Part shown: piece by piece, positions 1-42,795 of the stretch
Layout: each line of letters opens with the position of its first letter
Numbering within the stretch: position 1 is the stretch's first letter
Assembly (NCBI GenBank): GCA_031409775.1
Contig: JANNXY010000042.1
Coordinates: 165-64,164 of the forward strand
Source: a bacterium
GTDB taxonomy: Bacteria > Patescibacteriota > Minisyncoccia > Phycocordibacterales > CAIZIN01
Length of the DNA stretch: 64,000 bases
Reading direction: 5' to 3'
Notes under the pieces: generated by a model
The model's database searches: none
What the model saw: the letters and a program-made list of their open reading frames with translations, nothing else
Told to the model about the DNA's origin: nothing
Made by a program: the position numbers and the translations under genes

Positions 1-17
1 TCGGAGGGTTTTTAAAT

Positions 18-290
18 TTAATTCTTTACTTCAATTAGACTTTCAATCTCATCATATTTTGCCCGAAGAACCGCTTGTTCATCGAAATCTGGGGTTCTTC
101 CTGTATTTGAAAATTCATGGGTCATATCATGTAGCTCAGTAAGCTTGGCGGATGCTGCTTCGTAGTTGGCTGGACCTATTTGGCCTCGCAACTGAAATAA
201 ATTATCCAAATTAACCCCTACTTTGTTAAGAAAATTACTAAACCATTTTTTTCCTTCCTCATTTTCTTTTATTGGATCACCTTCACTCAT
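18..290 (-). CDS. hypothetical small protein (90 aa), no recognisable motif
   Basis: Intact ORF 15 nt downstream of, and co-directional with, the large membrane protein gene; no homology recognised. Confidence 0.35.
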   Translation of the reverse strand: MSEGDPIKENEEGKKWFSNFLNKVGVNLDNLFQLRGQIGPANYEAASAKLTELHDMTHEFSNTGRTPDFDEQAVLRAKYDEIESLIEVKN

Positions 291-305
291 TTTTGTATAT
301 TAATT

Positions 306-3140
306 TTAATTGTTAGAAATTATATCATTATTTTCTGGTTTTGGCTTGTTTTGTCTGATTATATAGGCAAACATTAGCCCAAACAGTATTACAACGAGTC
401 CCAACCCTCCCCACACGATCCATGGATATTTCTCTGTTATACGGCTCTCGTCTGGATCACATTTGTCCCCCACTTTGTCTAGATCGATATCACTCTGGTT
501 CTGGTTCGGCTCGTTTACACAGTTGTCTGTGCTGTTCACTACTCCATCACGATCGAAGTCATCGCAGGCATCCCCACGGCCGTTCTGATCTACATCACTC
601 TGATCAGTGTTGGCGATACGAACACAGTTATCCTGCATATCAGGGATGTTGTCCTTGTCAGTATCTGCAGGTTTATAGTCTGAATTCTGAACTATTTTTC
701 CTATAGATGCTTTCACCACGCCCTTGTCATCTCTCAGATTTGGCATCTCGCCGGTATTCAATGCCACAAATGATTCTGGGTCGCTATAAATGCGGTAACC
801 CACTCCTGGTTGAGCTAGAAACCGAACTGCAGAGTATGACTTTACTGTATCGAGATTTATTATCGTTAACTCATTGATTCGCAAGGGCTGTGAATATTCC
901 ATCTGAATAGTCCAGTTTGATGAATTGGTTTCTGGAAATTGTATAGTGTTCGAATTAGGTCGGATTCTGGAGAGGATTACTTTCTCATTTCCATTTGTAT
1001 CAAATGCCCTTACGGTAATAGAGGTAGGCAAAGCTACGTACTGATCAAAAGAAAAAACAATCGAATTGCTTCGAATAGATTTAGGGTACCGGAGAGAAAG
1101 AGAAACGGAACCCTGTGAACCATCTGCGGGCAAATCAAATGTTCGAGAGGTTTCGTAGTCATCGTCAGAAAGTTCATCAGAATTACTTGGGGTCATTTTC
1201 GTACTCGAATCTCCAACAATCAAACTCGGAATAAATTTATTTGATCCTGGTACGAAAACTCCAACTAGAGAGCGCGAATTATTATGTATAGGAACTTCTA
1301 CAACAGTCGGGACTTTAATCTCTGGGATGATTACACTTCCCACATTTCTAAATGATCCTACTTGAGCTGCCTGAGCTATGGTCATAGCACTTACTACATT
1401 CCCACCCAGTAAAGGAATTACCAAAAGTAAAACTAGCGCCGCAGGCTTACTTTTCTTTATAAAAGCAGTACTGATAAAGAGGATCCCAATAACGATAAAT
1501 GTCACAATGCGCGGTGCGAGATCCATATGCCACACATCTACGAATACAAGCCTAGCGACCACCAGTATAAGTATTGTTGCGCCATAGTGCTTGAAATTGA
1601 TCACATTACTCATAAGCCCATAAACATATGCAGCCAGTCCGATAATACTGTACACCAGCAATGATCCAAATGTCGCGGTACTTTCTAGAGTATTCCCTGC
1701 ATGGAAGCACAGCCACACAAGTGACAACAGATACACGGAACCTACTACATTGAGCGCAGTGTGGCCGTAGAGATGTGCAATACCTTTGTCTGCATCTTCT
1801 TTGTGAGACGAATAATAAAATACTCCGAGGAACATAAATGTAAGTCCCACCGCGAGAATGACAGAGAAATCCTCGTGCAATATATATGTGTTCCATTTAT
1901 TTGATAGAAAGCTTGGCAATGCCATGAGAGCCGGCACCGCCATAAGCCACGCCATCGCGTAGCCTGCAGAAATTTTCTTGGTAACCAAATAGCTTGCAAT
2001 AGATATTGCAGCCGCTTCGAATGTAAATGCGAGCACAAGCGATGGCCCATCGAGCTCTATGGACGTCGCTACCGCGAGGAATACCACTGATACGAGAGAA
2101 TATACGTAGAACAATTTCTCTTTGCCGGTCTTTACATATACGAAGAAGCTCCCTGCTGCAAATACCACCATCCACACTGCGAGCACCATACTCTGCAACT
2201 CCTCACGTACTATGGTCATGGTAGTAAGCATGATGAGTATTGAATTTATAATTGCCACAAATACATCAGACGGACTCGCTCCAGACTTAGACCGAACAAG
2301 TCCTATAATGCTCACTGCGAAATACAGTACAGATAGCACAAAAATAATGCCCAGTATAAAAAGATTATCTCGAGCTTCGAATCTGTCAAAGACATTCCAC
2401 ATACTATAGAATAATATTCCGAGAACAGAAACAGCATTTACCACCCTCCAATTCTTCATAGCTGCGACCCAGACAGACCCCACAGTGATCACGAGCAGAT
2501 AGACATAGAGCAGATCGATGTCCACGCGACTATCAGTGAGTATCGGCGCGATGAAGCCTATGAGTACAGAATAAATCGCAAGCCTTCTCATATCGAACAT
2601 CACCGCCACAAAGCCCAGGTATACTGCGACGATAAATGGTATTGATAGAGCTACTGCAGGAGTAAAGAATCCATAGACCACCTGCGATGCGTAGCTAGTT
2701 ATGACCACGAGAGCCGAACCAAGTACGAGGAGCATTGTTCCCTGCACGCTGTTTGATTGCATACGCAAGGTTCCCCACACAGCGATGATCGATCCCACGA
2801 TGAGCCCGAGCGCCACGCGAGCATGGGGACCTATCCAATTGTGCACGAATGCATAACTTATAAACCAGCCGAATCCAACGAGGATCATTAGTACACCGAC
2901 CTTGAGCAGCCAGTTCTCGCTAAACCATTTAAAGAATTTGTCCAGTGGATCCGGTCCGGATGGCGGAGGCATCACGTACGCGGGTTGTGCAGGAGCGGAA
3001 ACTGGATTATAAGCAACTACGGGTGCCACCCTCTCAACTGACTTGTGCCCGATCTGTGCTTCGAGGTTCGACACGCGGCTAGATAGACTAACTAGCTTGA
3101 TAATCACCACCACGAGCGCTACAAATAGTATAAATGACAT
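306..3140 (-). CDS. polytopic membrane protein (DUF2339-like, >20 predicted TM helices) with C-terminal thrombospondin type-3-like Ca-binding repeats and a terminal TM anchor
   Basis: 944 aa ORF. The N-terminal ~600 aa is dominated by hydrophobic helices. The C-terminal region contains repeated DxDxDGxxDxxDNC-type motifs (DTDKDNIPDMQDNC; DQSDVDQNGRGDACDDFDRDGVVNSTDNC; DIDLDKVGDKCD). A final hydrophobic segment WIVWGGLGLVVILFGLMFAYII follows. Confidence 0.6.
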   Translation of the reverse strand: MSFILFVALVVVIIKLVSLSSRVSNLEAQIGHKSVERVAPVVAYNPVSAPAQPAYVMPPPSGPDPLDKFFKWFSENWLLKVGVLMILVGFGWFISYAFVHNWIGPHARVALGLIVGSIIAVWGTLRMQSNSVQGTMLLVLGSALVVITSYASQVVYGFFTPAVALSIPFIVAVYLGFVAVMFDMRRLAIYSVLIGFIAPILTDSRVDIDLLYVYLLVITVGSVWVAAMKNWRVVNAVSVLGILFYSMWNVFDRFEARDNLFILGIIFVLSVLYFAVSIIGLVRSKSGASPSDVFVAIINSILIMLTTMTIVREELQSMVLAVWMVVFAAGSFFVYVKTGKEKLFYVYSLVSVVFLAVATSIELDGPSLVLAFTFEAAAISIASYLVTKKISAGYAMAWLMAVPALMALPSFLSNKWNTYILHEDFSVILAVGLTFMFLGVFYYSSHKEDADKGIAHLYGHTALNVVGSVYLLSLVWLCFHAGNTLESTATFGSLLVYSIIGLAAYVYGLMSNVINFKHYGATILILVVARLVFVDVWHMDLAPRIVTFIVIGILFISTAFIKKSKPAALVLLLVIPLLGGNVVSAMTIAQAAQVGSFRNVGSVIIPEIKVPTVVEVPIHNNSRSLVGVFVPGSNKFIPSLIVGDSSTKMTPSNSDELSDDDYETSRTFDLPADGSQGSVSLSLRYPKSIRSNSIVFSFDQYVALPTSITVRAFDTNGNEKVILSRIRPNSNTIQFPETNSSNWTIQMEYSQPLRINELTIINLDTVKSYSAVRFLAQPGVGYRIYSDPESFVALNTGEMPNLRDDKGVVKASIGKIVQNSDYKPADTDKDNIPDMQDNCVRIANTDQSDVDQNGRGDACDDFDRDGVVNSTDNCVNEPNQNQSDIDLDKVGDKCDPDESRITEKYPWIVWGGLGLVVILFGLMFAYIIRQNKPKPENNDIISNN

Positions 3141-3178
3141 AATTTATGAATTAATAATTATGTCTATATATTACCATG

Positions 3179-4960
3179 TTATGACAATTTCTCTAGCCTA
3201 GCTATATCTTCCTCGATAGATTTGAGCCCCGCTTCAAAGAATTCCGGCTTAGAGGTATCGACGCCGATGTCCTTAAATATCTGATACGGTGATTTGGAAC
3301 CACCAGCAGACAAGAACTCTTTTATCTTGTTTATGAAACCCTTGTCTTCTTTGTACTTGGCATAGAGCGCTTTGGAAATTATCTGACCATAAGCGTAGGA
3401 GTAGACGTAGAAGAAATATCTAAAGTGAGAAACGTAGACAAATGAATATCCCTCGTCTGGCTTCACATCCATCGCTTTACCTATGTAGCTCTCGATATGC
3501 TTCTTGTATAAGTCGGCGTACTCCCTGCTCGAAAGTGCCCCTTTTTGCCTCACCAAGTTGTGCATTTCGAGCTCGAAGTTAAAGAAAGCGATCTGGCGGA
3601 ATATGGTAGACATGTCATCCTGGATACGATCGAACAGGGCTATTTTCTTTTCTTTCTCTGACATCATTTCAAACACTTTCTCGAATGCAATGTTCTCGAA
3701 GAATGTTGAAGCAACTTCGGCAACAGAAATAGTATAGTTTTCATACAACACCGGCTGGCTACGAGAAAGTTCCGAATGTATCGCATGTCCCATCTCGTGA
3801 GCTAGAGTAGTATATGAGTTCAAGTTGTCCGTGTGATTGAGGAGAATTATGGTTGGTATATCGTGGCCGTTATTGCAAAATGCACCAGTTCTCTTGCCTT
3901 TCATAGGATAAACATCTATCCTCCCTGACTCTGCCATACTGAGTAGTATATTGCTGAATTTCACATCAGCACTAGCAAATGATTCTGCCGCCAAATCTAC
4001 CGCTTTGTTGAAAGGGATTTTCATCTTGGTCTTGCCTATACTTATCGAAGTGTCTGCTATGCGGAGCTTCTTTAGCTTGAGTAGCTTGGCTTTGAGTTTG
4101 TAGAACTTATGTGAAATGTAGAATTTATCAGTTATAGTATTGACCAAAGTCTCTATAGAATTCAAATCATTCTGGTAACCCACAACAGTTAGCTCATATG
4201 GTTTAGAGACATTGCGTAGATCATCGTCAATTTTCTTGTTGGTAACTACAGCGTTGAGCTCGGCTTCTGCAATAAATGAAATACTTTTTAGCTTCTGTGA
4301 TATCAGGTCACGAAGCTTGTAGCGGTCGGATTTGTTTAGCTCATTTATCATTCCTATCGCTTTACCCATCGGTAGCTTCTTGCCTTTCCATACTATCTGC
4401 TGCTGGTCCTGGAGCTTGCCTGAAACATCTGTCCACATGTTGTAGGCAGGCTGACGCTTGAGGTTGATGATCTTTTCTTCGGCTTCAGTTAAATTGTATT
4501 TGGCAGTAATAAAAATCCTTTCCAAGAAATATTTGTAACCTCCAAGAGTTTTATTAGTTAGAAATTCTTTTTGTTTATCTTTATCAATCTTACCAAGAGC
4601 AATTTCAAAGAAAATAATCTGGTTCGCAGCCATAGTTAGTCTGTTCTCCATCTTGTTTAACATCGCACGCATTGTGTCATTGTTACTATCCTTTTCTAAA
4701 AGCATCGACAGATACCAACCCGGCTTCCAAGTGCCTGCGGTTCTGTTTAGATTTTCCCAGTCTTCGAGTGCTTTGGCCAAACCTTCAGAAGTTTCTAGAT
4801 AATCAGATTTGTCTTTGTATTTCTTGGCAAACTTCCAGTAAACTTTCTCAATCATTTTGCAATCTTCTTCGATCCGAGGATCACTGATAGATTTGTAAAT
4901 ATCACTAAAATCCCATTCGGTCTTATACTTTGTATTTTTGCTGGTTTTTAAGTTTTTCAT
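3179..4960 (-). CDS. pepF: oligoendopeptidase F (peptidase M3B)
   Basis: 593 aa; HEMGH zinc-binding HExxH motif and overall PepF-like sequence (LAHEMGHAIHSE). Confidence 0.85.
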   Translation of the reverse strand: MKNLKTSKNTKYKTEWDFSDIYKSISDPRIEEDCKMIEKVYWKFAKKYKDKSDYLETSEGLAKALEDWENLNRTAGTWKPGWYLSMLLEKDSNNDTMRAMLNKMENRLTMAANQIIFFEIALGKIDKDKQKEFLTNKTLGGYKYFLERIFITAKYNLTEAEEKIINLKRQPAYNMWTDVSGKLQDQQQIVWKGKKLPMGKAIGMINELNKSDRYKLRDLISQKLKSISFIAEAELNAVVTNKKIDDDLRNVSKPYELTVVGYQNDLNSIETLVNTITDKFYISHKFYKLKAKLLKLKKLRIADTSISIGKTKMKIPFNKAVDLAAESFASADVKFSNILLSMAESGRIDVYPMKGKRTGAFCNNGHDIPTIILLNHTDNLNSYTTLAHEMGHAIHSELSRSQPVLYENYTISVAEVASTFFENIAFEKVFEMMSEKEKKIALFDRIQDDMSTIFRQIAFFNFELEMHNLVRQKGALSSREYADLYKKHIESYIGKAMDVKPDEGYSFVYVSHFRYFFYVYSYAYGQIISKALYAKYKEDKGFINKIKEFLSAGGSKSPYQIFKDIGVDTSKPEFFEAGLKSIEEDIARLEKLS

Positions 4961-4969
4961 CTAGCCAAT

Positions 4970-5545
4970 CTAACATATATCCCGAAGGATACCAAAATCC
5001 TTTACCAAAGTATCTTTCAATTTCTGATTATAGATTGCGGCTGCGGGGTGGTAGAGCGGGATGATTTTTACTTTACCCCATTTAGAATCTGCGAGATATG
5101 ACTTGCCATGTGCAGCGGAAATTGGCTCGATCTCATAACTCAAGCCAAATTTATCCATAATATAATTCATAGAATAACGACCGAGAGTGGCGATGACTTT
5201 CGGCTTGATTATTTCTAATTCCTGATCTAGATGTGGTCCGTACAATCTGATTTCCTCGGGAGTTGGATCGCGGTTCTCTGGCGGGCGGTCGTTTACGATA
5301 TTGGTGATGTAGATATCATCTCGGCTTAGGTTTACCGACTCGAGCAATCCATCTAGAATCTTCCCTGCTGCACCACAGAAAGGTTTGCCAGATTTGGCCT
5401 CATTGCGGCCTGGAGCCTCCCCTACGAACACGATCTCAGCTGTGTGACTTCCCTCACCTACCACAGGTAAGTAGCCGTTTTCGGTGCGATATTTGTAGAG
5501 GGGTAGCTTTGTATTATTTATGAGTTCTTTGTAAATAGAGTCCAT
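4970..5545 (-). CDS. uracil-DNA glycosylase superfamily protein (family-4-like)
   Basis: 191 aa; GEAPG motif (motif A of family 4/5 UDGs) and a C-terminal HPAA motif (YHPAAAIY). Only two Cys residues, so probably no Fe-S cluster. A TATAAT box lies 6 nt upstream of the ATG, suggesting a leaderless transcript. Confidence 0.7.
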   Translation of the reverse strand: MDSIYKELINNTKLPLYKYRTENGYLPVVGEGSHTAEIVFVGEAPGRNEAKSGKPFCGAAGKILDGLLESVNLSRDDIYITNIVNDRPPENRDPTPEEIRLYGPHLDQELEIIKPKVIATLGRYSMNYIMDKFGLSYEIEPISAAHGKSYLADSKWGKVKIIPLYHPAAAIYNQKLKDTLVKDFGILRDIC

Positions 5546-5744
5546 GGGGAGATTATAACATCCCTCCTGCCTCAGAAGGCAGTGCTCCCTTCAAAGGGAG
5601 AATTATACTCGCAGCTTCCCCAAAACTACGTTTATAACTGCAGCTAGGAACAGGAGCACAGGTACCTCGTGATGGGTTACAAATATTTCTAAATAGTGCA
5701 AAGTATTATTTACAAAAGAAACAAGTGATGTATGTGTCATATGT

Positions 5745-5780
5745 ACGCAAGAAAGCCTCTTCCGAAATAGAAAGAGGCTT
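5745..5780 (+). terminator. rho-independent terminator-like hairpin (GCCTCTTCCGAAATAGAAAGAGGC followed by TTTT)
   Basis: Perfect 9-bp GC-containing stem with a T-run on the plus strand only. No annotated plus-strand gene lies upstream. Confidence 0.5.
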
Positions 5781-5840
5781 TTAATGCTTGATTATCTTTC
5801 CACTTGGATGTGGACTAGAATTAGCACCTAACTCAATAGG

Positions 5841-6284
5841 TTGCTCACAGGTCGTTGGGCTAGTTCCCTCGCTGTAGTCTGGATATCGTATGAGGCTTTC
5901 AATGCTTTGCTTATTATACCACACTATGATAATGTGCAAGCAGAAAAACATCGACTTATGCACCATAATACATTATTCCACTTTGGTGAAGCTGCAATTT
6001 CACATGCAGAATTATGTGCTGAAACACTTCTCAATGCCGATCCAGATAAAATGCTTCACAGTTTGGATAAGGATGGTTTCTACTACATGCTCTATGGAGA
6101 TGAACTTAAGTATTTGATAATCTTTAGCAGATTCTTTGATCCTGAAGCGAATTTTGTTACGCTGCGCGGTTGCCCTACTGGTCCTGGGAGACAAGCTGGT
6201 AGGGACGAGATAATGAGACATATTGGGTCAGCAAAGAGATTTGCTACGGAGGTACTGGAAAGATGCAAAGAGCTCAGAGCCTAG
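5841..6284 (+). CDS. hypothetical protein (uncertain ORF)
   Basis: 147 aa ORF with no recognisable motifs. It overlaps conflicting ORFs on both strands, so the coding status is unresolved. Confidence 0.25.
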   Translation: MLTGRWASSLAVVWISYEAFNALLIIPHYDNVQAEKHRLMHHNTLFHFGEAAISHAELCAETLLNADPDKMLHSLDKDGFYYMLYGDELKYLIIFSRFFDPEANFVTLRGCPTGPGRQAGRDEIMRHIGSAKRFATEVLERCKELRA

Positions 6285-6296
6285 AACAGGTTCTTT

Positions 6297-6566
6297 TTAA
6301 TTTATCGCACCTTCTTTGCGTAGTAATTCCTTCTTACTCTTGCCCTGCAAGCCATTGTACTCACCAATTTTGCCATCGCTTCGGATCACGCGGTGACAGG
6401 GCACAGATTTATCAGCATTTGCTGCCATGATAGTCCCTACTGCCCGAGATGCTCCGGGACTACCGGCCTTGGTAGCGACACCCTTGTAGGTCATGGTCAT
6501 CCCCTTTGGAATTTTCTTTACTATGCTTAAAACTTTTTCTTTAAATTTATTTTTTGCTTCTTTCAT
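6297..6566 (-). CDS. MGMT-family methylated-DNA--protein-cysteine methyltransferase DNA-binding domain protein
   Basis: 89 aa; PCHRV active-site motif (VPCHRVIRSDGKIGEY) typical of the Ogt/Ada C-terminal domain. Confidence 0.7.
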   Translation of the reverse strand: MKEAKNKFKEKVLSIVKKIPKGMTMTYKGVATKAGSPGASRAVGTIMAANADKSVPCHRVIRSDGKIGEYNGLQGKSKKELLRKEGAIN

Positions 6567-7424: not shown

Positions 7425-7904
7425 CTAGCCTTTGATATCGATCTCTACTTCATCTATATTCTTGTCTGCTGGTACCTCAAACAGATTCAGCTGGATTGGC
7501 TTGCTATTCATTAAACCCTGAATTGACATAGGGTTTCCACCGGTTGTTTCTACTTTGAATTTCCTGTTGGTGATAACTTGGCTGCAAATTTCTTCTTCGT
7601 TTCTAGATGTATCCAGTGTGATAGTTGCAGATGTCTCGGTGTCTTTGGATATTGCAGAGACTAGGCTATAGCAAGGTGTAGGGAGATCGAGTGATCCAGC
7701 GTATATATGCTTGCCGTCTTTGTATTGATGCTTCACATTGATCACAGATACATAGTAGTCGCTGCCTGGGATAGGTAGGTTGTCTACTACGTCGTTCTTG
7801 TTCCAGTTCATCGCAGAATATACTCCCGCCACTAGAAGTATTATGACCAGTAGTACTGCAATAATCTTGCCCATATTATTTGAATTTTGCATATTTTCGT
7901 CCAT
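7425..7904 (-). CDS. membrane-anchored hypothetical protein
   Basis: 159 aa; N-terminal hydrophobic anchor (IIAVLLVIILLVAGVY) followed by a soluble domain; no homology recognised. Confidence 0.4.
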   Translation of the reverse strand: MDENMQNSNNMGKIIAVLLVIILLVAGVYSAMNWNKNDVVDNLPIPGSDYYVSVINVKHQYKDGKHIYAGSLDLPTPCYSLVSAISKDTETSATITLDTSRNEEEICSQVITNRKFKVETTGGNPMSIQGLMNSKPIQLNLFEVPADKNIDEVEIDIKG

Positions 7905-10363: not shown

Positions 10364-11329
10364 CTAGTCTTTTATATATTTAGATTTGTTTATATTGTGT
10401 TCATCGAGTGATTTGGCATAGTACATTTTCCCGTCGTCACCTGTTAGGAAATATAAATAAGGTGTATCGATAGGCGTAACTGTATCCCTGATTGACTCGA
10501 TCCCTGGATTAGATATCGGACTAGGAGGAAGGCCTTTGTATTTATAAGTATTATACGGTGAGTCCAGCTTCAGATCTGCCACAGTGAGCTCCGCACTGGT
10601 TTTATTGTTGATAAACCTAAACGTCGCATCGACCTGTAGTGGCATTCCGATCTCTAGCCTCTTCCACAATATACCCGCTACTATTCTGCGACTTTCTTTG
10701 TCATTGGCCTCTTCTTCTACTATAGAAGCCATAGTGATAATGTCCGAGAGTGGTTTGTTGAATGCACCTATTTCTTGGCTGACTTCCTTTATTCTAGTTT
10801 CGAATGTCGTTGTGAGCTTGTCTATAACAAGCGGTGTAGTGGCGAGTGGCATGAACAAATACGTATCCGGGAACAAGTAACCCTCTTTGTCCTCTGCTTT
10901 CTCTACGAATGCCTCTGCGTCGAACCCGATGAGGTTGTCTGCTAGTATCTCCGACATTTCCCTAGAACTTATTCCTTCTGGAAGAGTAATCTTCCTCGGT
11001 ATGAATCCGTAGATACCCCTACTAATACGTTTGGCAACTCCGTATACACTGAGTGGCTTCTCGAACAAATAACTACCAGCCTGTACATGTGTCTCGCTAC
11101 CTGTGAGTACTATTGCCAAATGCAGCATGGTCGGAGATCTGACTAGGCCCTGGTTCGCGAGGTGCTTGGCAATACTGTACGATCCTCTATCTGCTGGGAT
11201 TTCAACTATTGTATCAGATTCAAATGTAGGCGGTGCGAAGAAATAGTATGAAAAAACACAAATTAAAACTAGCCCTAGGATTCCAGAAATTATGATTTTG
11301 TACTTGTGGGCTTGGAACATCATATACAT
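10364..11329 (-). CDS. mltG: endolytic murein transglycosylase MltG (YceG family)
   Basis: 321 aa with an N-terminal TM and a YceG-like domain. Its start overlaps the stop of the upstream gene by 1 nt. Confidence 0.8.
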   Translation of the reverse strand: MYMMFQAHKYKIIISGILGLVLICVFSYYFFAPPTFESDTIVEIPADRGSYSIAKHLANQGLVRSPTMLHLAIVLTGSETHVQAGSYLFEKPLSVYGVAKRISRGIYGFIPRKITLPEGISSREMSEILADNLIGFDAEAFVEKAEDKEGYLFPDTYLFMPLATTPLVIDKLTTTFETRIKEVSQEIGAFNKPLSDIITMASIVEEEANDKESRRIVAGILWKRLEIGMPLQVDATFRFINNKTSAELTVADLKLDSPYNTYKYKGLPPSPISNPGIESIRDTVTPIDTPYLYFLTGDDGKMYYAKSLDEHNINKSKYIKD

Positions 11330-12624
11330 TATACTGGAAGATTACCTGGTGGTTCAGCCTTCTTGGACAGTACGCGGTCAAACGACGGAGTCTGCACCAC
11401 CTGGCCTGGGAAGTGATACACGGTTGCGAGCTCCTCGCTGTTTAGCACCATGTGCTTTTCTTTGTTGGGTTCATAGAAATAATCTCTGGCTCTATATACT
11501 TCAAATAATTCCTGCTTTTTCTTCAACAATTTTTTGCCAAATATATCTTGCCAAGGGTAGTCAAACGATGTTGCGTTCTTTGGCTTGAAGCCATTTAGAT
11601 TGTGCGAGCCGTACTGCTTGAATATACTCGTGAGCCCACCAATGTTCGATGCGTCAAAGAACTCATTCTCTGATATATACATTGCCCGGATCCCTACATC
11701 GTATGCGGGCTTGGATACACTCCTCTCGAGCGCATTGATCACTTCTGACTGACCCTTGCTCACATTGGGGAATACTTTCTGTTCCTTGCCGTCTTTGTCC
11801 TTGATCACTTGCACCGTTTCTTCTTTGATCTTCTTTATCTCCTCGGCTGCAGAATCCTTCCAATTATCTTTCTTCTTCCAGAGCTCTTTCCAGGCGTCAT
11901 TGTAACCTTTCTCTAGCAAAGTCTTCTTAAACTTTCCCCAGCGTAGAGAAAAAGGTATCAAATCCTCATCCTTGTGCCCCCGCACAATAAACTGGATCCA
12001 GACTTGCTGACGCTGTCCTACGCTTCCCAGAAACTCTATCGTAGGTGTAATAGGATCTACTTTGAATTCTTCTTCTAGGAGCTTCTCCTCTCCGATACCG
12101 AAGTCACGGTAAGTCTTTATCGGGAATGCATCCGCTTTGCTAAGCTCGATCTCGCATCCCCATAGACCGTATTCACTAGGATTGTAGTTTATCTTCTTTG
12201 TATAATCTTTGACCTCTGTGACCTCGATACCTGGATACTGTGCATATAGCTGTGTCTCTGTAAATTTCTTCCAACCTGTCCATGTCCAGATGAAGAATCT
12301 AACCTTGCCCTCGATAGATGCAAGCTCGAGTGAGAAGTACGGACGAGTCTTGCCCAAGAAGTTCCTGTCGTACCATGTACCTTCGCCGCCAGTCTGGTTC
12401 AGGTTGAGCAGGAATGCCTCCATAGCGGATGGAGTCTTGGTAACTTCTTTGGGTAATAAGATTTCCAACACTACAGGGTTCTGCTTGTTCCAGAACACGC
12501 GACGCTTGTACGCAACAAATGTTTCGAAAAACTTACCCCACAGAAGAAATGGCAAAGAGACAGTAGCTATAGTTATAGCGTACCTGATTATAGAAGGGAC
12601 ATAATCCACCAATGATTCATTCAT
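11329..12624 (-). CDS. hypothetical membrane-anchored protein (431 aa)
   Basis: N-terminal TM (IIRYAITIATVSLPFLLW) followed by a large soluble domain with no recognised motifs. Translationally coupled to mltG. Confidence 0.4.
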   Translation of the reverse strand: MNESLVDYVPSIIRYAITIATVSLPFLLWGKFFETFVAYKRRVFWNKQNPVVLEILLPKEVTKTPSAMEAFLLNLNQTGGEGTWYDRNFLGKTRPYFSLELASIEGKVRFFIWTWTGWKKFTETQLYAQYPGIEVTEVKDYTKKINYNPSEYGLWGCEIELSKADAFPIKTYRDFGIGEEKLLEEEFKVDPITPTIEFLGSVGQRQQVWIQFIVRGHKDEDLIPFSLRWGKFKKTLLEKGYNDAWKELWKKKDNWKDSAAEEIKKIKEETVQVIKDKDGKEQKVFPNVSKGQSEVINALERSVSKPAYDVGIRAMYISENEFFDASNIGGLTSIFKQYGSHNLNGFKPKNATSFDYPWQDIFGKKLLKKKQELFEVYRARDYFYEPNKEKHMVLNSEELATVYHFPGQVVQTPSFDRVLSKKAEPPGNLPV

Positions 12625-13715: not shown

Positions 13716-16559
13716 TCAATTTCCGTCAACTACAATACTGACTAGCCTGCCAGGGACGTATATTTCCTTCTTTATTACCCTCCCGGCGATCCACTTATCC
13801 ACAGCTGGTAGGGCTCTAGTAAGCTCAATAACATCTTTCTGTGTCGCTTCCCTGCTTACTTCTAGTTCAGCCCTAACCTTGCCATTTACCTGTATCGCAA
13901 TCTTTATAGTATCTGAAACAAGCTTGGATGCATCGTATGAGGGCCAGTTTGCCTTGTGGACAGAGGATTTGTGGCCTATCTGGCTCCAGAGCTCTTCGGT
14001 TACATGTGGGGCAAATGGGGCAAGTAGCTGGAGCACGGTCTCGTAGACTTTATTATTTACGCTTTCTTCTTTCTCTAGTCTATTTAAGAGGATCATAAGT
14101 GTAGAGATGGCGGTGTTGAACGACATTTTCTCTATATCTTCGCTTACTTTCTTTATACTTTGATTAAGTAGAATTTCTACGTCAGAGGGAGTTTTAATCT
14201 TCTTGTCCAATTTCTCTGCTAGCTTCCAAACGCGTTCCACGAACCTACGTGAGCCAACTACACTATCTGAACTCCATGCAACAGGTTGGTCAAATGGACC
14301 CATGAACATTTCAAATACACGGAGACTATCTGCTCCATAGATCTTTACCAAGTCATCCGGATTAACAACATTACCCTTTGATTTGGACATTTTTTCTCCG
14401 CCTTCAGCAAGTATTAGCCCGTGGGAGGTTCTCTTAGCGTATGGTTCAATCGTAGGAACTTCTCCGATATCATAGAGAAATTTGTGCCAGAATCGAGAAT
14501 ACAAAAGATGCAGCGTAGTATGCTCCATGCCGCCGTTGTACCAGTCCACTGGGGTCCATTTATCAAGCTTATTCTTGTCAGCGAAAGATTTTTTATTCTT
14601 TGGGTCTATATATCGCAAATAATACCAAGAAGATCCAGCCCAGTTGGGCATTGTATCTGTTTCCCTTTCAGCATCGCCCTTACACTTCGGGCATTGGACG
14701 TTGACCCATTTGGAAATAGTTGATAGCGGGGACTCTCCGTTGTCAGTGGGCTCATAATGCTTTACTTTGGGCAATACGACCGGCAAATCCTTCTCTGGTA
14801 CAGGTACCCAACCACAATCATTACAATTTATCATTGGAATTGGCTCTCCCCAATATCGCTGGCGAGAGAAGACCCAGTCTTTCAATTTATACTTTACGAC
14901 CTTACGGCCGAATTCATTTGTAATTTTTCCTTTTGCTTCATTTGCAGTTAGTCCATCAAACTCGCCTGAGTTGATTACAATTCCATCGCCTGTGTAAGGA
15001 GGGAAATATTCTGAACTCATGCGTTCGAGCCAGAACTTGAGCTCTGAGTTTACCATTTTGCCTACAACGAATTCCTGAGGGGAAACCCACAATATTTCAT
15101 TGGTTTCTTCTTCACCAGCAGCTATTTCAGTTCTATCGTTTCCAATAAGTTCGAAATACGCAGCGGTCGTGATGGCCACTCTGTTTTCATCTTTGTGTTT
15201 AGCAAAGTAAGAAGCTTGCACCGGTCCCCCGAGAGTTTTTATAAATTTCAAATTTGTGTAGCCAGTTTCCTCTATAACTTCGCGGACAGCAGCTTGTTCT
15301 GCGCTTTCATTTTCTTCTATCCCACCTATCACCACGGTATCCCATCCAAATTTACTATTGCGGATAATCAAGTATTTATCTTGGTTCGGATCGTACACTA
15401 TCGCATGTGCATTCTTCCTTACTTTAGAGGACTTGTCTGACCTCGGAGGATTCACATGGTCTACAACCGAAGGCATGATTACGTCTCTTATTTCCAAATC
15501 GTATTTCTTTGCGAATTTAAAGTCACGTTCATCGTGAGCTGGCACTGCCATTACTGCACCTGTTCCATAATTAACCAGAACATAGTCTGCTATCCAAATC
15601 GGAATTTCTTCCCCTGTTGCAGGGTTTATGGCTACTACGCCTTTTACTTCCACCCCAGTCTTTTCCTTGGTAGCATCAGTTCTGTCTATCTCGGTTTTGT
15701 CTTTTGATTTTTTTATATAATCCTCTACTTCCTTTTTATTTTCTATTGGGAGTTCAGCTATCAGCCTGTGTTCTGGTGCTAGCACGATATAGGTTACGCC
15801 ATATAGTGTGTCGGCACGAGTGGTAAATACTGTGATTTTCTCAGAACTGTCCTTGATCTGGAAATCAATCTCCGCACCTTCACTCCTACCAATCCAATTG
15901 CGTTGCTGGATCTTTATCTTTTCAAGGAAATCTACAGTGTCCAAATCTTTGTCCAATCTGTCTGCGTATTTGGTGATAGCAAGCATCCATTGATCCTTGT
16001 CCCTCTTTTCTACTGCAGTTCCACATCGTTCACATTTACCATCTACTACCTCTTCGTTGGCGAGGCCGATTTTATCTTTGGGACACCAATTTATATTCAT
16101 TTTGGATTTGTAAGCCAAACCTTTCTCAAACATCTTTAGAAATATCCACTGTGTCCATTTATAGTATTCGGGATCAGTTGTATTGACCTCTCGTGACCAG
16201 TCAAAGGAAGCTCCTAAGTTTTTAATTTGTTTTCTGAAATTACCTGTATTTTGCTTAGTAACAAACGCGGGCTGTTTACCAGTTTTAATAGCATAGTTTT
16301 CAGTAGGAAGTCCAAATGCATCCCATCCCATGGGATAAAGCACGTTAAACCCTTCTACTCGTCTCTTCCTTGCAATTGCATCCAGGGCAATATATGGCCT
16401 CACATGACCGACATGGAGACCGTCGCCAGACGGAAAAGGAAATTCAACCAGTGCATAGAATTTAGGCTTATCTGTCTTTTCGCTTGTTTTATAAAGCTTC
16501 TTCTCTTCCCACTTCTTCTGCCATTTCTTCTCTATTTTCTTGTGATCATAAGACTTCAT
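13716..16559 (-). CDS. leuS: leucyl-tRNA synthetase with inserted Nudix-fold domain
   Basis: HVGH (HIGH), editing-domain TTRADT and AVPAHDERD motifs, and KMSKSKGN. At 947 aa it is longer than E. coli LeuS because of a ~140 aa insertion containing GGIEENESAEQAAVREVIEETGY, which fits GX5EX7REUXEEXGU. Confidence 0.95.
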   Translation of the reverse strand: MKSYDHKKIEKKWQKKWEEKKLYKTSEKTDKPKFYALVEFPFPSGDGLHVGHVRPYIALDAIARKRRVEGFNVLYPMGWDAFGLPTENYAIKTGKQPAFVTKQNTGNFRKQIKNLGASFDWSREVNTTDPEYYKWTQWIFLKMFEKGLAYKSKMNINWCPKDKIGLANEEVVDGKCERCGTAVEKRDKDQWMLAITKYADRLDKDLDTVDFLEKIKIQQRNWIGRSEGAEIDFQIKDSSEKITVFTTRADTLYGVTYIVLAPEHRLIAELPIENKKEVEDYIKKSKDKTEIDRTDATKEKTGVEVKGVVAINPATGEEIPIWIADYVLVNYGTGAVMAVPAHDERDFKFAKKYDLEIRDVIMPSVVDHVNPPRSDKSSKVRKNAHAIVYDPNQDKYLIIRNSKFGWDTVVIGGIEENESAEQAAVREVIEETGYTNLKFIKTLGGPVQASYFAKHKDENRVAITTAAYFELIGNDRTEIAAGEEETNEILWVSPQEFVVGKMVNSELKFWLERMSSEYFPPYTGDGIVINSGEFDGLTANEAKGKITNEFGRKVVKYKLKDWVFSRQRYWGEPIPMINCNDCGWVPVPEKDLPVVLPKVKHYEPTDNGESPLSTISKWVNVQCPKCKGDAERETDTMPNWAGSSWYYLRYIDPKNKKSFADKNKLDKWTPVDWYNGGMEHTTLHLLYSRFWHKFLYDIGEVPTIEPYAKRTSHGLILAEGGEKMSKSKGNVVNPDDLVKIYGADSLRVFEMFMGPFDQPVAWSSDSVVGSRRFVERVWKLAEKLDKKIKTPSDVEILLNQSIKKVSEDIEKMSFNTAISTLMILLNRLEKEESVNNKVYETVLQLLAPFAPHVTEELWSQIGHKSSVHKANWPSYDASKLVSDTIKIAIQVNGKVRAELEVSREATQKDVIELTRALPAVDKWIAGRVIKKEIYVPGRLVSIVVDGN

Positions 16560-28443: not shown

Positions 28444-30024
28444 TTAAACCACTTCCTTAAATCTCTTGATTAGAAATTCGCGGTCGAGGACAGAGAGGAA
28501 CCAGCCGGCCTTGGGACCAGAAGATTTTCCTAGAATGGAGAGGTAGATCGCGGAGAAGAATTCTTTGGGTTCGATTTGAAGACTTTCTTTGATCTCATGA
28601 AGCTTGGTGTGGAATGCCTGGCCTTCGATAGACTGATTCGCCTCGATGAATTCTACGAGCAGAGTAAGTGCCTGTTTCTGGATATCAGAGAAGTTCTTTG
28701 CACTTTCTGGTACTTCCTTTTTAATTTCGAATTTATATTCCTCGGGAGCGAATTCTGCAATCCATTTCTGTACATATGTGATACGGTGAAGCAATTCTTT
28801 CTTGTCTTCGTCGGTGAGAGTAATTTCTTGGAGTTTTTCAATTTCCTTTACTGGATCCAAATGCGGCATCTGGGAAATGAATGCGACAGTTGAAAACCTC
28901 GGCAAATGCCTCTCGGTAATATTGCCCTGATCCTCTGGCTTATGCGATAGGTAAAAGGCGCGGGTGAAATCGTCTTTAACACCTCCGAAATACTTTTTCG
29001 CGTAAGTATCGTAGTTATCAAATAGAATTGGCACGGTATCTCCTGCCGGATCGAATTCGAGGACCTTCATTGGTTCTTTGTATATAAGTAAAAATCTAAA
29101 TAACTCTGCAGGGAGTAAATCTGCAATCTCTCGCGATGATGACCCAGCACCTTTGGAACTGGACATTTTCTTGCCACCGACTTGAAAGAATTCATAAGGA
29201 ATGTTAAATGGTGGCTCAACACCGAACACTTCGCGAGCGATGGTATCTGCGACTTCCCTTGCACCACCTTTGGTCGAGTGATCCTTGCCGCCTCCCTCTA
29301 CATGGACTCCGATTATCTTGAACTTGGCAGCCCATTCTACCTTCCACGGAAGCTTGGCACGACCATCAAACGGAGATATCCTGCCCTGCTTGCCACATCC
29401 CGTGGCCCATTTGACGAAGTCACCACATGTATACTCGACTGTCTCCCCGTCCCAGTTTCGAGCCTTGGTAGTCCCCACCTTGCCACACTGCTCACATACC
29501 ACAGAAAGCGCGAGCCAATCATCAGCACGAACTGAGCCAGAAATTCTCTTGTAAATTTCTCGGATCTTGTCTGCATTATCTAGAGCGAGCCTGATAGCTT
29601 CGTTATATTTACCAGACTTGTACAATTCACTAGATCGGTAGAATTCCGGATAGAATCCTGTATCAGTTATCACCTGCATGAACTCGCTCGCGAAATATTC
29701 TGCATAGTTGGTTGCTATCGCATCAGGAGACGGGACGTTGCACAGAGGCTTGCCCATGTGCTCTCTGAATTTATTTTCATCCAGATACACCGGCAATCCA
29801 TCCATCGGATCATAGTCGTTGATTTCGTAAAGGAATTTGTGAAAGATTCCTTTCTCCTTTAGCACCTCATCGATCATGCCATGTATTGCAACACCTCGCA
29901 TCGATCCTACATGTACGCGACCAGAGGCGGTCTTCTCGTCACGTATGACAAGAGGCTTGCCGCTCTTTATAACAGCGTCAAAATGCTTTTCTATTTCCGA
30001 TCCTATTCGGTCGGTCCAAAACAT
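28444..30024 (-). CDS. lysK: lysyl-tRNA synthetase, class I (LysK type)
   Basis: HVGS (HIGH-like) at RVHVGSMRG and KMSSSKG signature typical of class I LysRS; 526 aa. Confidence 0.85.
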   Translation of the reverse strand: MFWTDRIGSEIEKHFDAVIKSGKPLVIRDEKTASGRVHVGSMRGVAIHGMIDEVLKEKGIFHKFLYEINDYDPMDGLPVYLDENKFREHMGKPLCNVPSPDAIATNYAEYFASEFMQVITDTGFYPEFYRSSELYKSGKYNEAIRLALDNADKIREIYKRISGSVRADDWLALSVVCEQCGKVGTTKARNWDGETVEYTCGDFVKWATGCGKQGRISPFDGRAKLPWKVEWAAKFKIIGVHVEGGGKDHSTKGGAREVADTIAREVFGVEPPFNIPYEFFQVGGKKMSSSKGAGSSSREIADLLPAELFRFLLIYKEPMKVLEFDPAGDTVPILFDNYDTYAKKYFGGVKDDFTRAFYLSHKPEDQGNITERHLPRFSTVAFISQMPHLDPVKEIEKLQEITLTDEDKKELLHRITYVQKWIAEFAPEEYKFEIKKEVPESAKNFSDIQKQALTLLVEFIEANQSIEGQAFHTKLHEIKESLQIEPKEFFSAIYLSILGKSSGPKAGWFLSVLDREFLIKRFKEVV

Positions 30025-40914: not shown

Positions 40915-42795
40915 ATGTATTTAATCCGAGTAATACCAATATCTAGAGGAATTGACAAGGACTCGCTTACATATTTCAGCCTCAGAGACTGCCCTGTGGG
41001 ACACATCGCAAGCATCCAGATAAGGAGTAGAATGGCCCCAGCTATAGTGTATTCAAGCGAGAAAGTGGAGATGGAGAAGAGCTCTATCAAGCAACTCCCG
41101 TATGAGTTGAAAAAGATTTCCGATGCTGGGAGCGGTAGTCAGCCATTTTTTAACCAAGCATTTATGAAGGCTGTAGAAAATATCGCAACACATCATGCAT
41201 CATCTGCAGGTGCGGTGATCGAAGCTCTCACACCATCTAACGTACTCTCTGAGCATGTATCAATCATATCAAAGGTGGCAGAAATTCCAGTCGACAATCA
41301 CCCCACAGAGAACCTGATGTTCCAAGCCGACGACGAGACTCGACTTGCACATTACAAAAGCATAATAAGAGAAGAATTCGCCAAGAAAAATTCTGTATTT
41401 ATACTTGTACCGACAGTTCACGAAGCCAACTTTATCAAAGAAGGTTTAGAAAAAGGTATCGAATCATATACCTATGTAGCTCACGGTGGTCTGTCCAAGA
41501 AAGCTTCTGTACATCTATGGAACGAAGTGATAAGCAATTCACACCCTGTATTGGTTATAGGAACTGCGATATTTCTATCTATACCGCGAAGATGGAATAC
41601 GATCATAGTAGAGCGCGAGAGTTCTAGGCATTACAAAATGTCACAGAGACCGTTCCTAGATGTTCGACGTGTCGCAGAGAAGCTGGCCCTGCATTCGAAA
41701 GCGACATGTATATTTGCAGACGTGATGCTACGCGCAGAAACTCTCTGTAGGTACGAAGATGGCGAGATACACGAAGTGAGTAAACCCCAATGGAGGTCTA
41801 TGTCGAATTCCAAGATAAACCTAGTAGACCTCCGTAGTCTCAAATTCTCTATACTAAGTAATGAGCTGAGGCAACTGATTTCTGACAACAAATCCAACGG
41901 TCGGAGGCTGTTTATCTATGTATCACGTAGGGGTAATTCTCCACAGATTATATGTCGGGACTGTGGCAACACGGTTATGTGTAACAGGTGTAGTGCACCC
42001 GTAGTGCTGCATACATCAGCTGCCAAAAGTGATCGATACTTCCTCTGCCATAGTTGTGGCGAGCGACGTACCGCAGATGAGTCATGCACTCACTGCGAGA
42101 GCTGGCACCTACAGGGCTACGGTGTGGGCATAGAATCTGCCCAAGAACTCCTGAGTAAAGAATTTCCAAATATCAAAATATTTAGAATCGACTCCGACAC
42201 TACACCCACAGACAAGAAAGCGACAGCTGTAATAGATGAATTCTATACCAACCCCGGTAGCATACTACTAGGCACTGACCGTGCGCTGTACTACCTCAAG
42301 GAACCGATCGAGAATGTCGCTATAGCATCACTCGACTCTCTGTTCTCGCTCCCCGACTTCCGAATCCAAGAAAAGATATTCCACACCATTCTACAGCTAC
42401 GATCGCTCTCGTCACATACATTCATCGCACAGACGCGCTACACCGACAATCCGTTGTGGAACTATGCGCTCAAAGGAAACCTCATCGACTTCTACCGCTC
42501 AGAAAAGGACTCTCGCAAGCAGTTCCACTATCCACCGTACAAGACACTTATAAAGATCACCTACACAGGTACACCAGCATTAGTCCGCAAGGAAATGTCG
42601 AACCTCAAATCAATATTGGAACCGTATGTTGTAAACATCTTCCCTGCGTTTATCGAGAACAAGAAAGGTAAATTTGTAATGCATGGACTACTCCGCCTCG
42701 ACAAGCGTGACTGGCCGAACCTGGACCTCCATGACAAACTCCGCTCCCTCCCGCCAAGCTTTGCCGTAAATGTCGATCCCGAGAATTTGCTTTAG
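40915..42795 (+). CDS. priA: primosomal protein N' (PriA) homolog with degenerate helicase ATPase motifs
   Basis: PriA-like 3'-DNA-binding N-terminus and the characteristic CxxC-rich Zn-binding insert (CRDCGNTVMCNRCSAPVV...CHSCGERRTADESCTHCES) are present. No GxGKT Walker A was found. The DEEH box position reads IIVERESSRHYK. Confidence 0.65.
   Translation: MYLIRVIPISRGIDKDSLTYFSLRDCPVGHIASIQIRSRMAPAIVYSSEKVEMEKSSIKQLPYELKKISDAGSGSQPFFNQAFMKAVENIATHHASSAGAVIEALTPSNVLSEHVSIISKVAEIPVDNHPTENLMFQADDETRLAHYKSIIREEFAKKNSVFILVPTVHEANFIKEGLEKGIESYTYVAHGGLSKKASVHLWNEVISNSHPVLVIGTAIFLSIPRRWNTIIVERESSRHYKMSQRPFLDVRRVAEKLALHSKATCIFADVMLRAETLCRYEDGEIHEVSKPQWRSMSNSKINLVDLRSLKFSILSNELRQLISDNKSNGRRLFIYVSRRGNSPQIICRDCGNTVMCNRCSAPVVLHTSAAKSDRYFLCHSCGERRTADESCTHCESWHLQGYGVGIESAQELLSKEFPNIKIFRIDSDTTPTDKKATAVIDEFYTNPGSILLGTDRALYYLKEPIENVAIASLDSLFSLPDFRIQEKIFHTILQLRSLSSHTFIAQTRYTDNPLWNYALKGNLIDFYRSEKDSRKQFHYPPYKTLIKITYTGTPALVRKEMSNLKSILEPYVVNIFPAFIENKKGKFVMHGLLRLDKRDWPNLDLHDKLRSLPPSFAVNVDPENLL

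Follow-up and report, generated by a model that had tools for sequence, protein, structure and literature searches.

The closest described counterpart of the locus analysed here is the Arc3 system of Pseudomonas aeruginosa. Arc3A (PA5114), whose homologues have been defined as proteins of the Pfam family DUF2339 (PF10101) (Ting et al. 2022, eLife, PMC8926400), is, among the genes of P. aeruginosa, the one that matters most for survival against Tle3, a T6SS (type VI secretion system) phospholipase, and it prevents the accumulation of lysophospholipids (PMC8926400). Beside it is encoded Arc3B (PA5113, PF13163/DUF3999), which co-immunoprecipitates with Arc3A, and the P. aeruginosa mutant can be complemented by Arc3A homologues of other Proteobacteria (PMC8926400). 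Natural single-polypeptide fusions of Arc3A and Arc3B are indicated for some organisms in a figure supplement of that work (PMC8926400, Figure 1-figure supplement 2C), and protection by Arc3A against the lipases TseL and Tle1 has been independently confirmed in a 2025 preprint. Here we describe a DUF2339 gene and its partner in Patescibacteria, the group that also goes by the name Candidate Phyla Radiation (CPR), starting from a 944-residue open reading frame (ORF) in a 64,000-nucleotide (nt) stretch of contig JANNXY010000042.1 (assembly GCA_031409775.1, Phycocordibacterales), which we refer to in full as the window.

A DUF2339 protein from a CPR bacterium has been noted as enigmatic before, namely a 990-residue protein of a Gracilibacterium (Sieber et al. 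2019, mBio, PMC6851277). It is similar in length to the window protein, although its length comes from more transmembrane (TM) helices (32), whereas the window protein is long through a fused, ectodomain-bearing partner. We found nothing relevant in the literature on thrombospondin repeats in Patescibacteria or Parcubacteria, and no description there of the thrombospondin type 3 (TSP3) partner or of a module of DUF2339 and this partner in CPR bacteria. The ORF, whose limits the initial annotation had placed exactly, is organized as follows.

306..3140, minus strand: the fused ORF, with an ATG start and 944 codons plus a stop; a DUF2339/Arc3A-family gene joined in frame to the downstream partner gene
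1446..3140, minus strand: DUF2339 (Arc3A-family) polytopic part, residues 1-565, assigned by its PF10101 match, its identity to stand-alone DUF2339 proteins and the TM model
1386..1445, minus strand: junction helix TM20, residues 566-585, PAALVLLLVIPLLGGNVVSA, apparently from the hydrophobic region (h-region) and AxA site of the partner's Sec signal peptide
669..1385, minus strand: extracytoplasmic all-beta region, residues 586-824, with a sandwich core of the CBM32 / F5-8 type C (discoidin, galactose-binding-like) kind
447..668, minus strand: TSP3 repeats, putatively Ca-binding, residues 825-898, assigned by Pfam TSP_3 and by the family profile against COMP and thrombospondin-2 (TSP-2)
309..446, minus strand: linker SRITEKYPW (conserved), TM anchor at the C-terminus (907-925) and short basic tail RQNKPKP... 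on the cytoplasmic side, residues 899-944

Two adjacent genes joined in one reading frame

The 944-residue ORF joins in frame two genes that stand apart, next to each other, in nearly all relatives. When the whole protein was used as query, only five proteins, the query included, showed the full architecture. Around 60 closer relatives of the N-terminal part are DUF2339-only proteins of about 590 residues from Paceibacterota/Parcubacteria, and the close ones all carry a PF10101 annotation, while the C-terminal 358 residues match at least 623 stand-alone proteins of about 390 residues, at 40-53% identity over roughly 95% of the query, that are annotated with TSP_3 alone. Because both halves are nearer to unfused relatives than to any other fused form, we reject a single ancestral giant scaffold, and the reading of this ORF as one giant scaffold protein gives way to a fusion of two genes.

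The DNA of the junction fits this origin. The DUF2339 part terminates in the basic tail STAFIKKSK, which matches the family consensus STAFIxxKxK, and this tail runs straight into PAALVLLLVIPLLGGNVVSA and then MT, with no stop, spacer or ATG remnant; nothing is left of what usually stands at this point, a tail of about 10 residues, a stop codon, a spacer and the ATG of the partner. By contrast, an unfused locus (L001) has a stop, 7 nt and an ATG between the two genes, and on the contig of P0019 the TSP_3 partner of about 390 residues likewise begins 7 nt after the DUF2339 gene. Judged by its sequence, the hydrophobic helix preceding the ectodomain is the partner's former signal peptide, now serving as TM20. 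In the topology model it takes the chain from the cytoplasmic KKSK patch to the cell exterior. Topology allows the fusion, since the DUF2339 part ends in the cytoplasm and signal peptides insert with the N-terminus inside and the C-terminus outside. A putative signal-peptidase site, after VSA, may persist in the fused protein. Nine fused junctions, from a total of 14 fused representatives, and that of L164 all retain the basic patch, the hydrophobic segment and an AxA-like site; in the other five representatives a motif search did not locate the junction.

Fusions of this kind are rare and appear to have arisen several times independently. An exhaustive HMMER search of 1.84 billion representatives yielded 12 fused representatives of 926-988 residues in which one alignment spans both halves, and these lie among hundreds of unfused DUF2339 and partner representatives; P0002 and P0015 bring the known number to 14. 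For either half of the window protein, identity is 45-52% to unfused relatives and 33-43% to other fused proteins, and the nearest neighbours of several other fused forms are unfused as well, which argues for at least four, and probably more, independent fusion events. The family also includes DUF2339 proteins of intermediate length, 692-881 residues (P0053, P0302, P0309, P0326, P0328, P0343, P0351, P0354, P0366, P0372 and P0386), whose matches to the query are confined to residues ~40-480, in 2-4 stretches, and which are probably other architectural variants with extra helices.

Where the two genes are separate, they sit side by side. We scanned one genome per species (GTDB) with the DUF2339 alignment and obtained 80 loci, at which the partner was detected with a hidden Markov model of its beta region, the TSP3 part being left out. 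The partner gene lies immediately downstream on the same strand in 75 of these loci and is adjacent in two more that were mis-scored by ORF delimitation. The other three stop at a contig edge, so that every locus with room for a partner has one (77/77). Between the two genes the stop-to-start distance has a median of 4 nt and ranges from -23 to +20 nt in 72 of the 77 loci, with an overlap in 19. The reciprocal test started from 80 metagenome loci retrieved with the partner alignment, 10 of them lacking upstream room: all 70 partner genes that have such room are preceded directly by DUF2339 (67) or fused to it in frame (3). The two genes thus make up a membrane module that is essentially invariant in Patescibacteria, and this strict co-inheritance, along with repeated fusion, is classical genomic evidence for a physical complex.

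Two DUF2339 genes without a downstream partner, L002 (P0014) and L004 (P0085), are exceptions to the otherwise strict rule; in L002, from a close CPR relative, a two-component system sits after the DUF2339 gene. Loci with the CPR-type pair also occur in metagenome-assembled genomes labelled Nitrospira, Acidobacteriota, Gammaproteobacteria, Ignavibacteria or Zixibacteria (L006, L013, L021, L036, L037, L038, L043 and L068), and these labels may reflect mis-binned CPR contigs, loose labelling or horizontal transfer.

Membrane topology and the TSP3 ectodomain

Residues 1-565 are a member of the Arc3A family by the criterion of Ting et al., since the protein scores above the PF10101 gathering threshold (123.7 bits against a cut-off of 33.6, E=1.3e-35, Pfam), and the DUF2339-like scaffold of the initial annotation is thereby borne out. 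Our TM model, which combines a Kyte-Doolittle scan with one helix (187-203) placed by inspection, contains about 21 helices, 20 within residues 1-586 and one at 907-925. The N-terminal part is therefore as rich in helices as had been proposed, although the earlier figure of more than 20 in the first ~600 residues was a slight overcount. Nineteen of the helices belong to the 565 residues of the DUF2339 part, where an N-terminal TM helix and a cytoplasmic Pro-rich linker of about 60 residues are followed by 18 tightly packed TM helices, with loops mostly of 3-17 residues and a cytoplasmic C-terminus. This part is 45-52% identical to stand-alone DUF2339 proteins of about 580 residues from Paceibacterota, and its conserved motifs include ENWLLK, GFGWFxSYAF, NWIGPxGR and RLxxVDVW.

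The cytoplasmic segments of the model carry 26 lysines and arginines against 6 on the short outer loops, and from this positive-inside tally an outside location follows for residues 586-906 and an inside one for the C-terminal tail RQNKPKP. Together with the Sec signal peptides of all unfused homologues, the tally predicts that the TSP3 repeats are extracytoplasmic. The beta-rich extracytoplasmic region and the C-terminal TM anchor described in the initial annotation agree with this model, in which the repeats do not fall in the cytoplasm, and the repeats do match the TSP3 profile.

The partner (residues 566-944 here) is a type I membrane protein of about 390 residues, made up of a signal peptide, a beta-sandwich, a TSP3 segment and a C-terminal TM anchor. 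All 77 unfused partners begin with MKxK, a hydrophobic stretch and AxA, as in a classical Sec signal peptide, and these signal peptides contain AxA-type sites and no lipobox cysteine. The ectodomain was modelled by AlphaFold2 from a 65-sequence alignment with a mean pLDDT (predicted local distance difference test) of 90.8, and it has the galactose-binding-like beta-sandwich fold of CBM32 and F5-8 type C domains. With Pfam, neither PF00754 nor PF22633 was matched by the window protein, and 2 of the 65 relatives gave a weak PF22633 match (E=0.1). These 65 partner sequences, 39-52% identical to the window protein, share 38 invariant columns at a mean column identity of 38%. Family motifs of the beta region are VPTVVEVP, YSQPLRINEL (YSQPLRIxEL in the family) and RFLAQP, and NGRGDACDDFDRDG and ESRxTEKYPW are further motifs conserved among the partners.

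The Asp-rich repeats, which had been likened to the TSP3 Ca-binding consensus, do match TSP_3 (PF02412) in three stretches (43.1 bits against a cut-off of 25, E=3.4e-11, Pfam), as do all 65 members of the partner family (best E=2.6e-19). Within the segment, two DxDxDxxxDxxDNC motifs alternate with two NxxQxDxDxxGxGDxCD motifs, and cysteines 839, 859, 874 and 894, four of only five in the whole protein, are invariant in the family. This pattern suggests a disulfide-stapled, putatively Ca-binding segment. The partner-family profile aligns with the solved, Ca-loaded type 3 repeats of COMP (3fby, E=9.9e-51) and thrombospondin-2 (1yo8, E=2.2e-44) in their Asp/Asn/Cys pattern, and also with 2rhp and 1ux6, the E values over the four structures ranging from 1e-50 to 1e-22. 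Against 1ux6, 1yo8 and 3fby, the Asp/Asn-rich motifs and the Cys spacing correspond nearly position by position, although the partner has about two repeat pairs (74 residues), whereas the animal proteins have about seven or more, lacks the C-terminal lectin-like domain, and occurs in a bacterial, membrane-anchored context.

Several further observations concern these repeats. An RGD tripeptide lies within them, in NGRGDAC (residues 853-859, window 564-584, minus strand); over the 65 partner proteins its R is conserved in at least 90% and its G and D are invariant. TSP3-type stretches 43-51% identical to those of the window protein occur, 13-28 at a time, in giant proteins of 1670-5579 residues (P0293-P0295, P0306, P0311, P0317, P0319, P0325, P0336, P0344, P0396 and P0404). 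One partner-family member, P0174, is named 'Peptidase S15' in NCBI, probably a misannotation, because TSP_3 alone was detected in it.

Comparison with Arc3 and the proposed function of the module

The DUF2339 part shares with Arc3A (PA5114) a densely packed polytopic membrane architecture, the lack of obvious catalytic residues, and a co-encoded partner that faces outward and carries a TM helix at its C-terminus. It differs in belonging to a monoderm CPR organism, and no Gac/Rsm regulation and no aas neighbour were seen here. Neighbourhood with aas/lplT, frequent in the Arc3A family, is an accessory trait and does not define it. The betaproteobacterial arc3 locus L003 does carry an aas neighbourhood: in Betaproteobacteria bacterium GR16-43, L003 1-12772 is a same-strand string of genes for an Aas-like protein (major facilitator superfamily plus acyltransferase), DUF2339, DUF3999, DUF2157, DUF4401 and GDYXXLXY. 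The last three, which code for membrane proteins, overlap each other and may be part of the same system.

The partner resembles Arc3B in its gene position, directly downstream of DUF2339 with an overlap or a spacing of a few nt, and in its N-terminal signal sequence, C-terminal TM helix and short basic tail. Both ectodomains are all-beta and have the same CBM32 / F5-8 type C modules as their best PDB matches, and both proteins are occasionally fused to their DUF2339 proteins. In the Arc3A-Arc3B fusions indicated in the published figure supplement, a DUF2339 protein and its neighbouring partner are likewise combined in one chain, although the domain joined to DUF2339 there is DUF3999 and here it is the TSP3/discoidin protein. 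Arc3B has a larger beta region than the CPR partner. Published descriptions make it a lipoprotein of the outer membrane that is confined to Gram-negative phyla; the signal of the CPR partner, by contrast, is of the signal-peptidase-I type and lacks a lipobox. Nor was a Cys seen in the N-terminus of a DUF3999 sequence (P0216) or of the consensus from the collected DUF3999 set.

On this evidence we think it rather probable that the ORF is a one-chain version of a two-gene CPR module that works as an Arc3-like complex, protecting or maintaining the membrane, with the partner as the CPR counterpart of Arc3B. Several observations pull the other way. Arc3 function has been demonstrated for proteobacterial members only (PMC8926400; 2025 preprint). 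The CPR DUF2339 part has about 19 TM helices, roughly half of the 35 in Arc3A, and no aas/lplT-like gene was found among the 30 window ORFs scanned. Arc3B is without TSP3 repeats, so that the TSP3 segment of the partner has no equivalent in it. PF13163 (DUF3999) had no match at E<=10 in the window protein or in any of the 65 partner proteins, and an hhalign comparison of the partner with DUF3999 gave a 5% probability (E=0.0074, 40 columns) with full alignments and less than 1% with trimmed ones. The discoidin-type fold is moreover very common, and sharing it is weak evidence of common descent. We call the partner an Arc3B counterpart and not a DUF3999 member because sequence homology is not demonstrable; it would be an analogue of Arc3B and possibly a very remote homologue.

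If the Arc3-like reading is correct, the DUF2339 protein and its partner would form a 1:1 complex in the cytoplasmic membrane, and the former signal peptide, as TM20, would keep the ectodomain outside the cell. By analogy with Arc3A, we infer that the module serves in membrane and lysolipid protection: the helix bundle may protect or maintain the bilayer by preventing lysophospholipid build-up or by blocking the action of phospholipases. The TSP3 stalk, stiffened by Ca, and the discoidin-type domain would stand on the outer leaflet, with lipid head groups, glycans or the attacking enzyme as potential ligands. Fusion would then alter stoichiometry and tethering and leave the kind of function as it was.

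A role in lipid housekeeping, that is, lipid scavenging or lysolipid management and not defence, is conceivable and in our judgement unlikely. The module would take up, accommodate or remodel host-derived (lyso)lipids, with its discoidin-type domain serving to catch the head groups of lipids or glycolipids at the outer leaflet. CPR bacteria lack lipid synthesis and appear rich in lysolipids (Probst et al.), and the fused gene lies amid housekeeping genes for PepF, UDG, MnmA, YceG, leucyl-tRNA synthetase, penicillin-binding proteins and MreB. This support is purely circumstantial, however: no lipid enzyme or transporter domain was detected, and P. aeruginosa Arc3A has no detectable effect on the stability of lysophosphatidylethanolamine when antagonism is absent (PMC8926400). 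A more far-reaching proposal, which strikes us as quite unlikely, is that the DUF2339 and TSP3/discoidin module is the core membrane-lipid machine of Patescibacteria, an Arc3-type complex turned to housekeeping, whose Ca-loaded ectodomain captures host-derived (lyso)lipids at the outer leaflet, whose bundle buffers or inserts them and whose partner is a very diverged Arc3B. Were this true, the recurrent fusions would mark an obligate 1:1 complex, and Arc3B-type subunits would not be limited to Gram-negative bacteria.

The initial annotation had raised the possibility of Ca-dependent adhesion, attachment or envelope organization; on such a reading the TSP3 and CBM32-like ectodomain would bind host glycans or the cell's own wall and the membrane part would be a mere anchor. 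We regard this as very doubtful, having found no specific support for it. TSP3 repeats and discoidin/CBM32 modules do occur in adhesive and carbohydrate-binding proteins, the partner family has its conserved RGD tripeptide, and CPR bacteria are often episymbionts. There is also a partial similarity to the Myxococcus cell-cohesion protein MtsC across the TSP3 region, although the NCBIfam score for NF047638 is 68.9 bits against a cut-off of 350; a protein of the MtsC/TraB type was rejected as a candidate, the NF033763 score being 6.4 against 700 and the match being confined to the TSP3 stretch. An ectodomain of only about 320 residues would have little reach beyond the wall, its C-terminus being anchored in the membrane and its N-terminus, in the fused protein, predicted to be so too. 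A 19-helix anchor is unnecessary for adhesion, and host-facing adhesins usually vary, whereas the partner family is strongly conserved (its invariant columns are given above). That the partner is strictly coupled to a gene of the Arc3A family suggests a membrane function common to both, and coupling and conservation together fit a fixed partner subunit better than a host-facing adhesin.

It is exceedingly improbable that the fusion is an artefact, with a sequencing or assembly error having erased the stop between adjacent genes of an organism that makes two proteins: a small error could join genes normally only ~4 nt apart, the fused lineage of the window is so far a singleton, and an exact-sequence contig look-up for the window protein and P0001 gave no match, yet this is no simple read-through, as tail, stop, spacer and partner ATG are all gone and the frame is continuous into the signal-peptide h-region, the identical 944-residue sequence is present in both NCBI and Logan, and 13 other fused representatives exist, whose clusters recur in part across JGI, ENA and Logan assemblies made with different assemblers.

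Other features of the window and meaning of the module

A 90-residue ORF without a Pfam match (window 18-290, minus strand) follows the fused gene on the same strand at a distance of 15 nt. A promoter and terminator scan of positions 1-6500 returned counts equal to shuffled expectation and is thus silent on an internal start or operon boundaries. An S-adenosylmethionine (SAM) riboswitch match (RF00162) at 5789-5888, minus strand, stands at the gathering threshold (44.5 against 44.4 bits); the next minus-strand genes after it, those for UDG, PepF and the DUF2339 fusion, have no relation to methionine or SAM, and the match may be a false positive or the regulator of an unrecognized small gene. 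The 947-residue leucyl-tRNA synthetase (13716-16559, minus strand) has an unusual insertion, a NUDIX hydrolase domain at residues 381-504 (E=1.7e-13), just past the editing domain, and the lysyl-tRNA synthetase (28444-30024, minus strand) belongs to class I (PF01921, E=1.7e-85), which is the rarer kind among bacteria. Three ORFs had no Pfam match: 40915-42795 (plus strand, 626 residues), 11329-12624 (minus strand, 431 residues) and 7425-7904 (minus strand, 159 residues).

Arc3A is widespread and protects bacterial membranes by a mechanism still unexplained, and Arc3B has been thought exclusive to Gram-negative bacteria. CPR bacteria pair an Arc3A-type protein strictly with a different-looking, architecturally equivalent partner, and this linkage, with the repeated independent fusions, is strong genomic evidence that the two-subunit complex is the functional unit. 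The CPR module would be a second, compact version of the system, with its ~19 helices and well-modelled 320-residue ectodomain suited to structural and complementation work, and its fused form is a ready-made single-gene construct for experiments. It also ties the Arc3 system to organisms whose membranes are scavenged and apparently rich in lysolipids.

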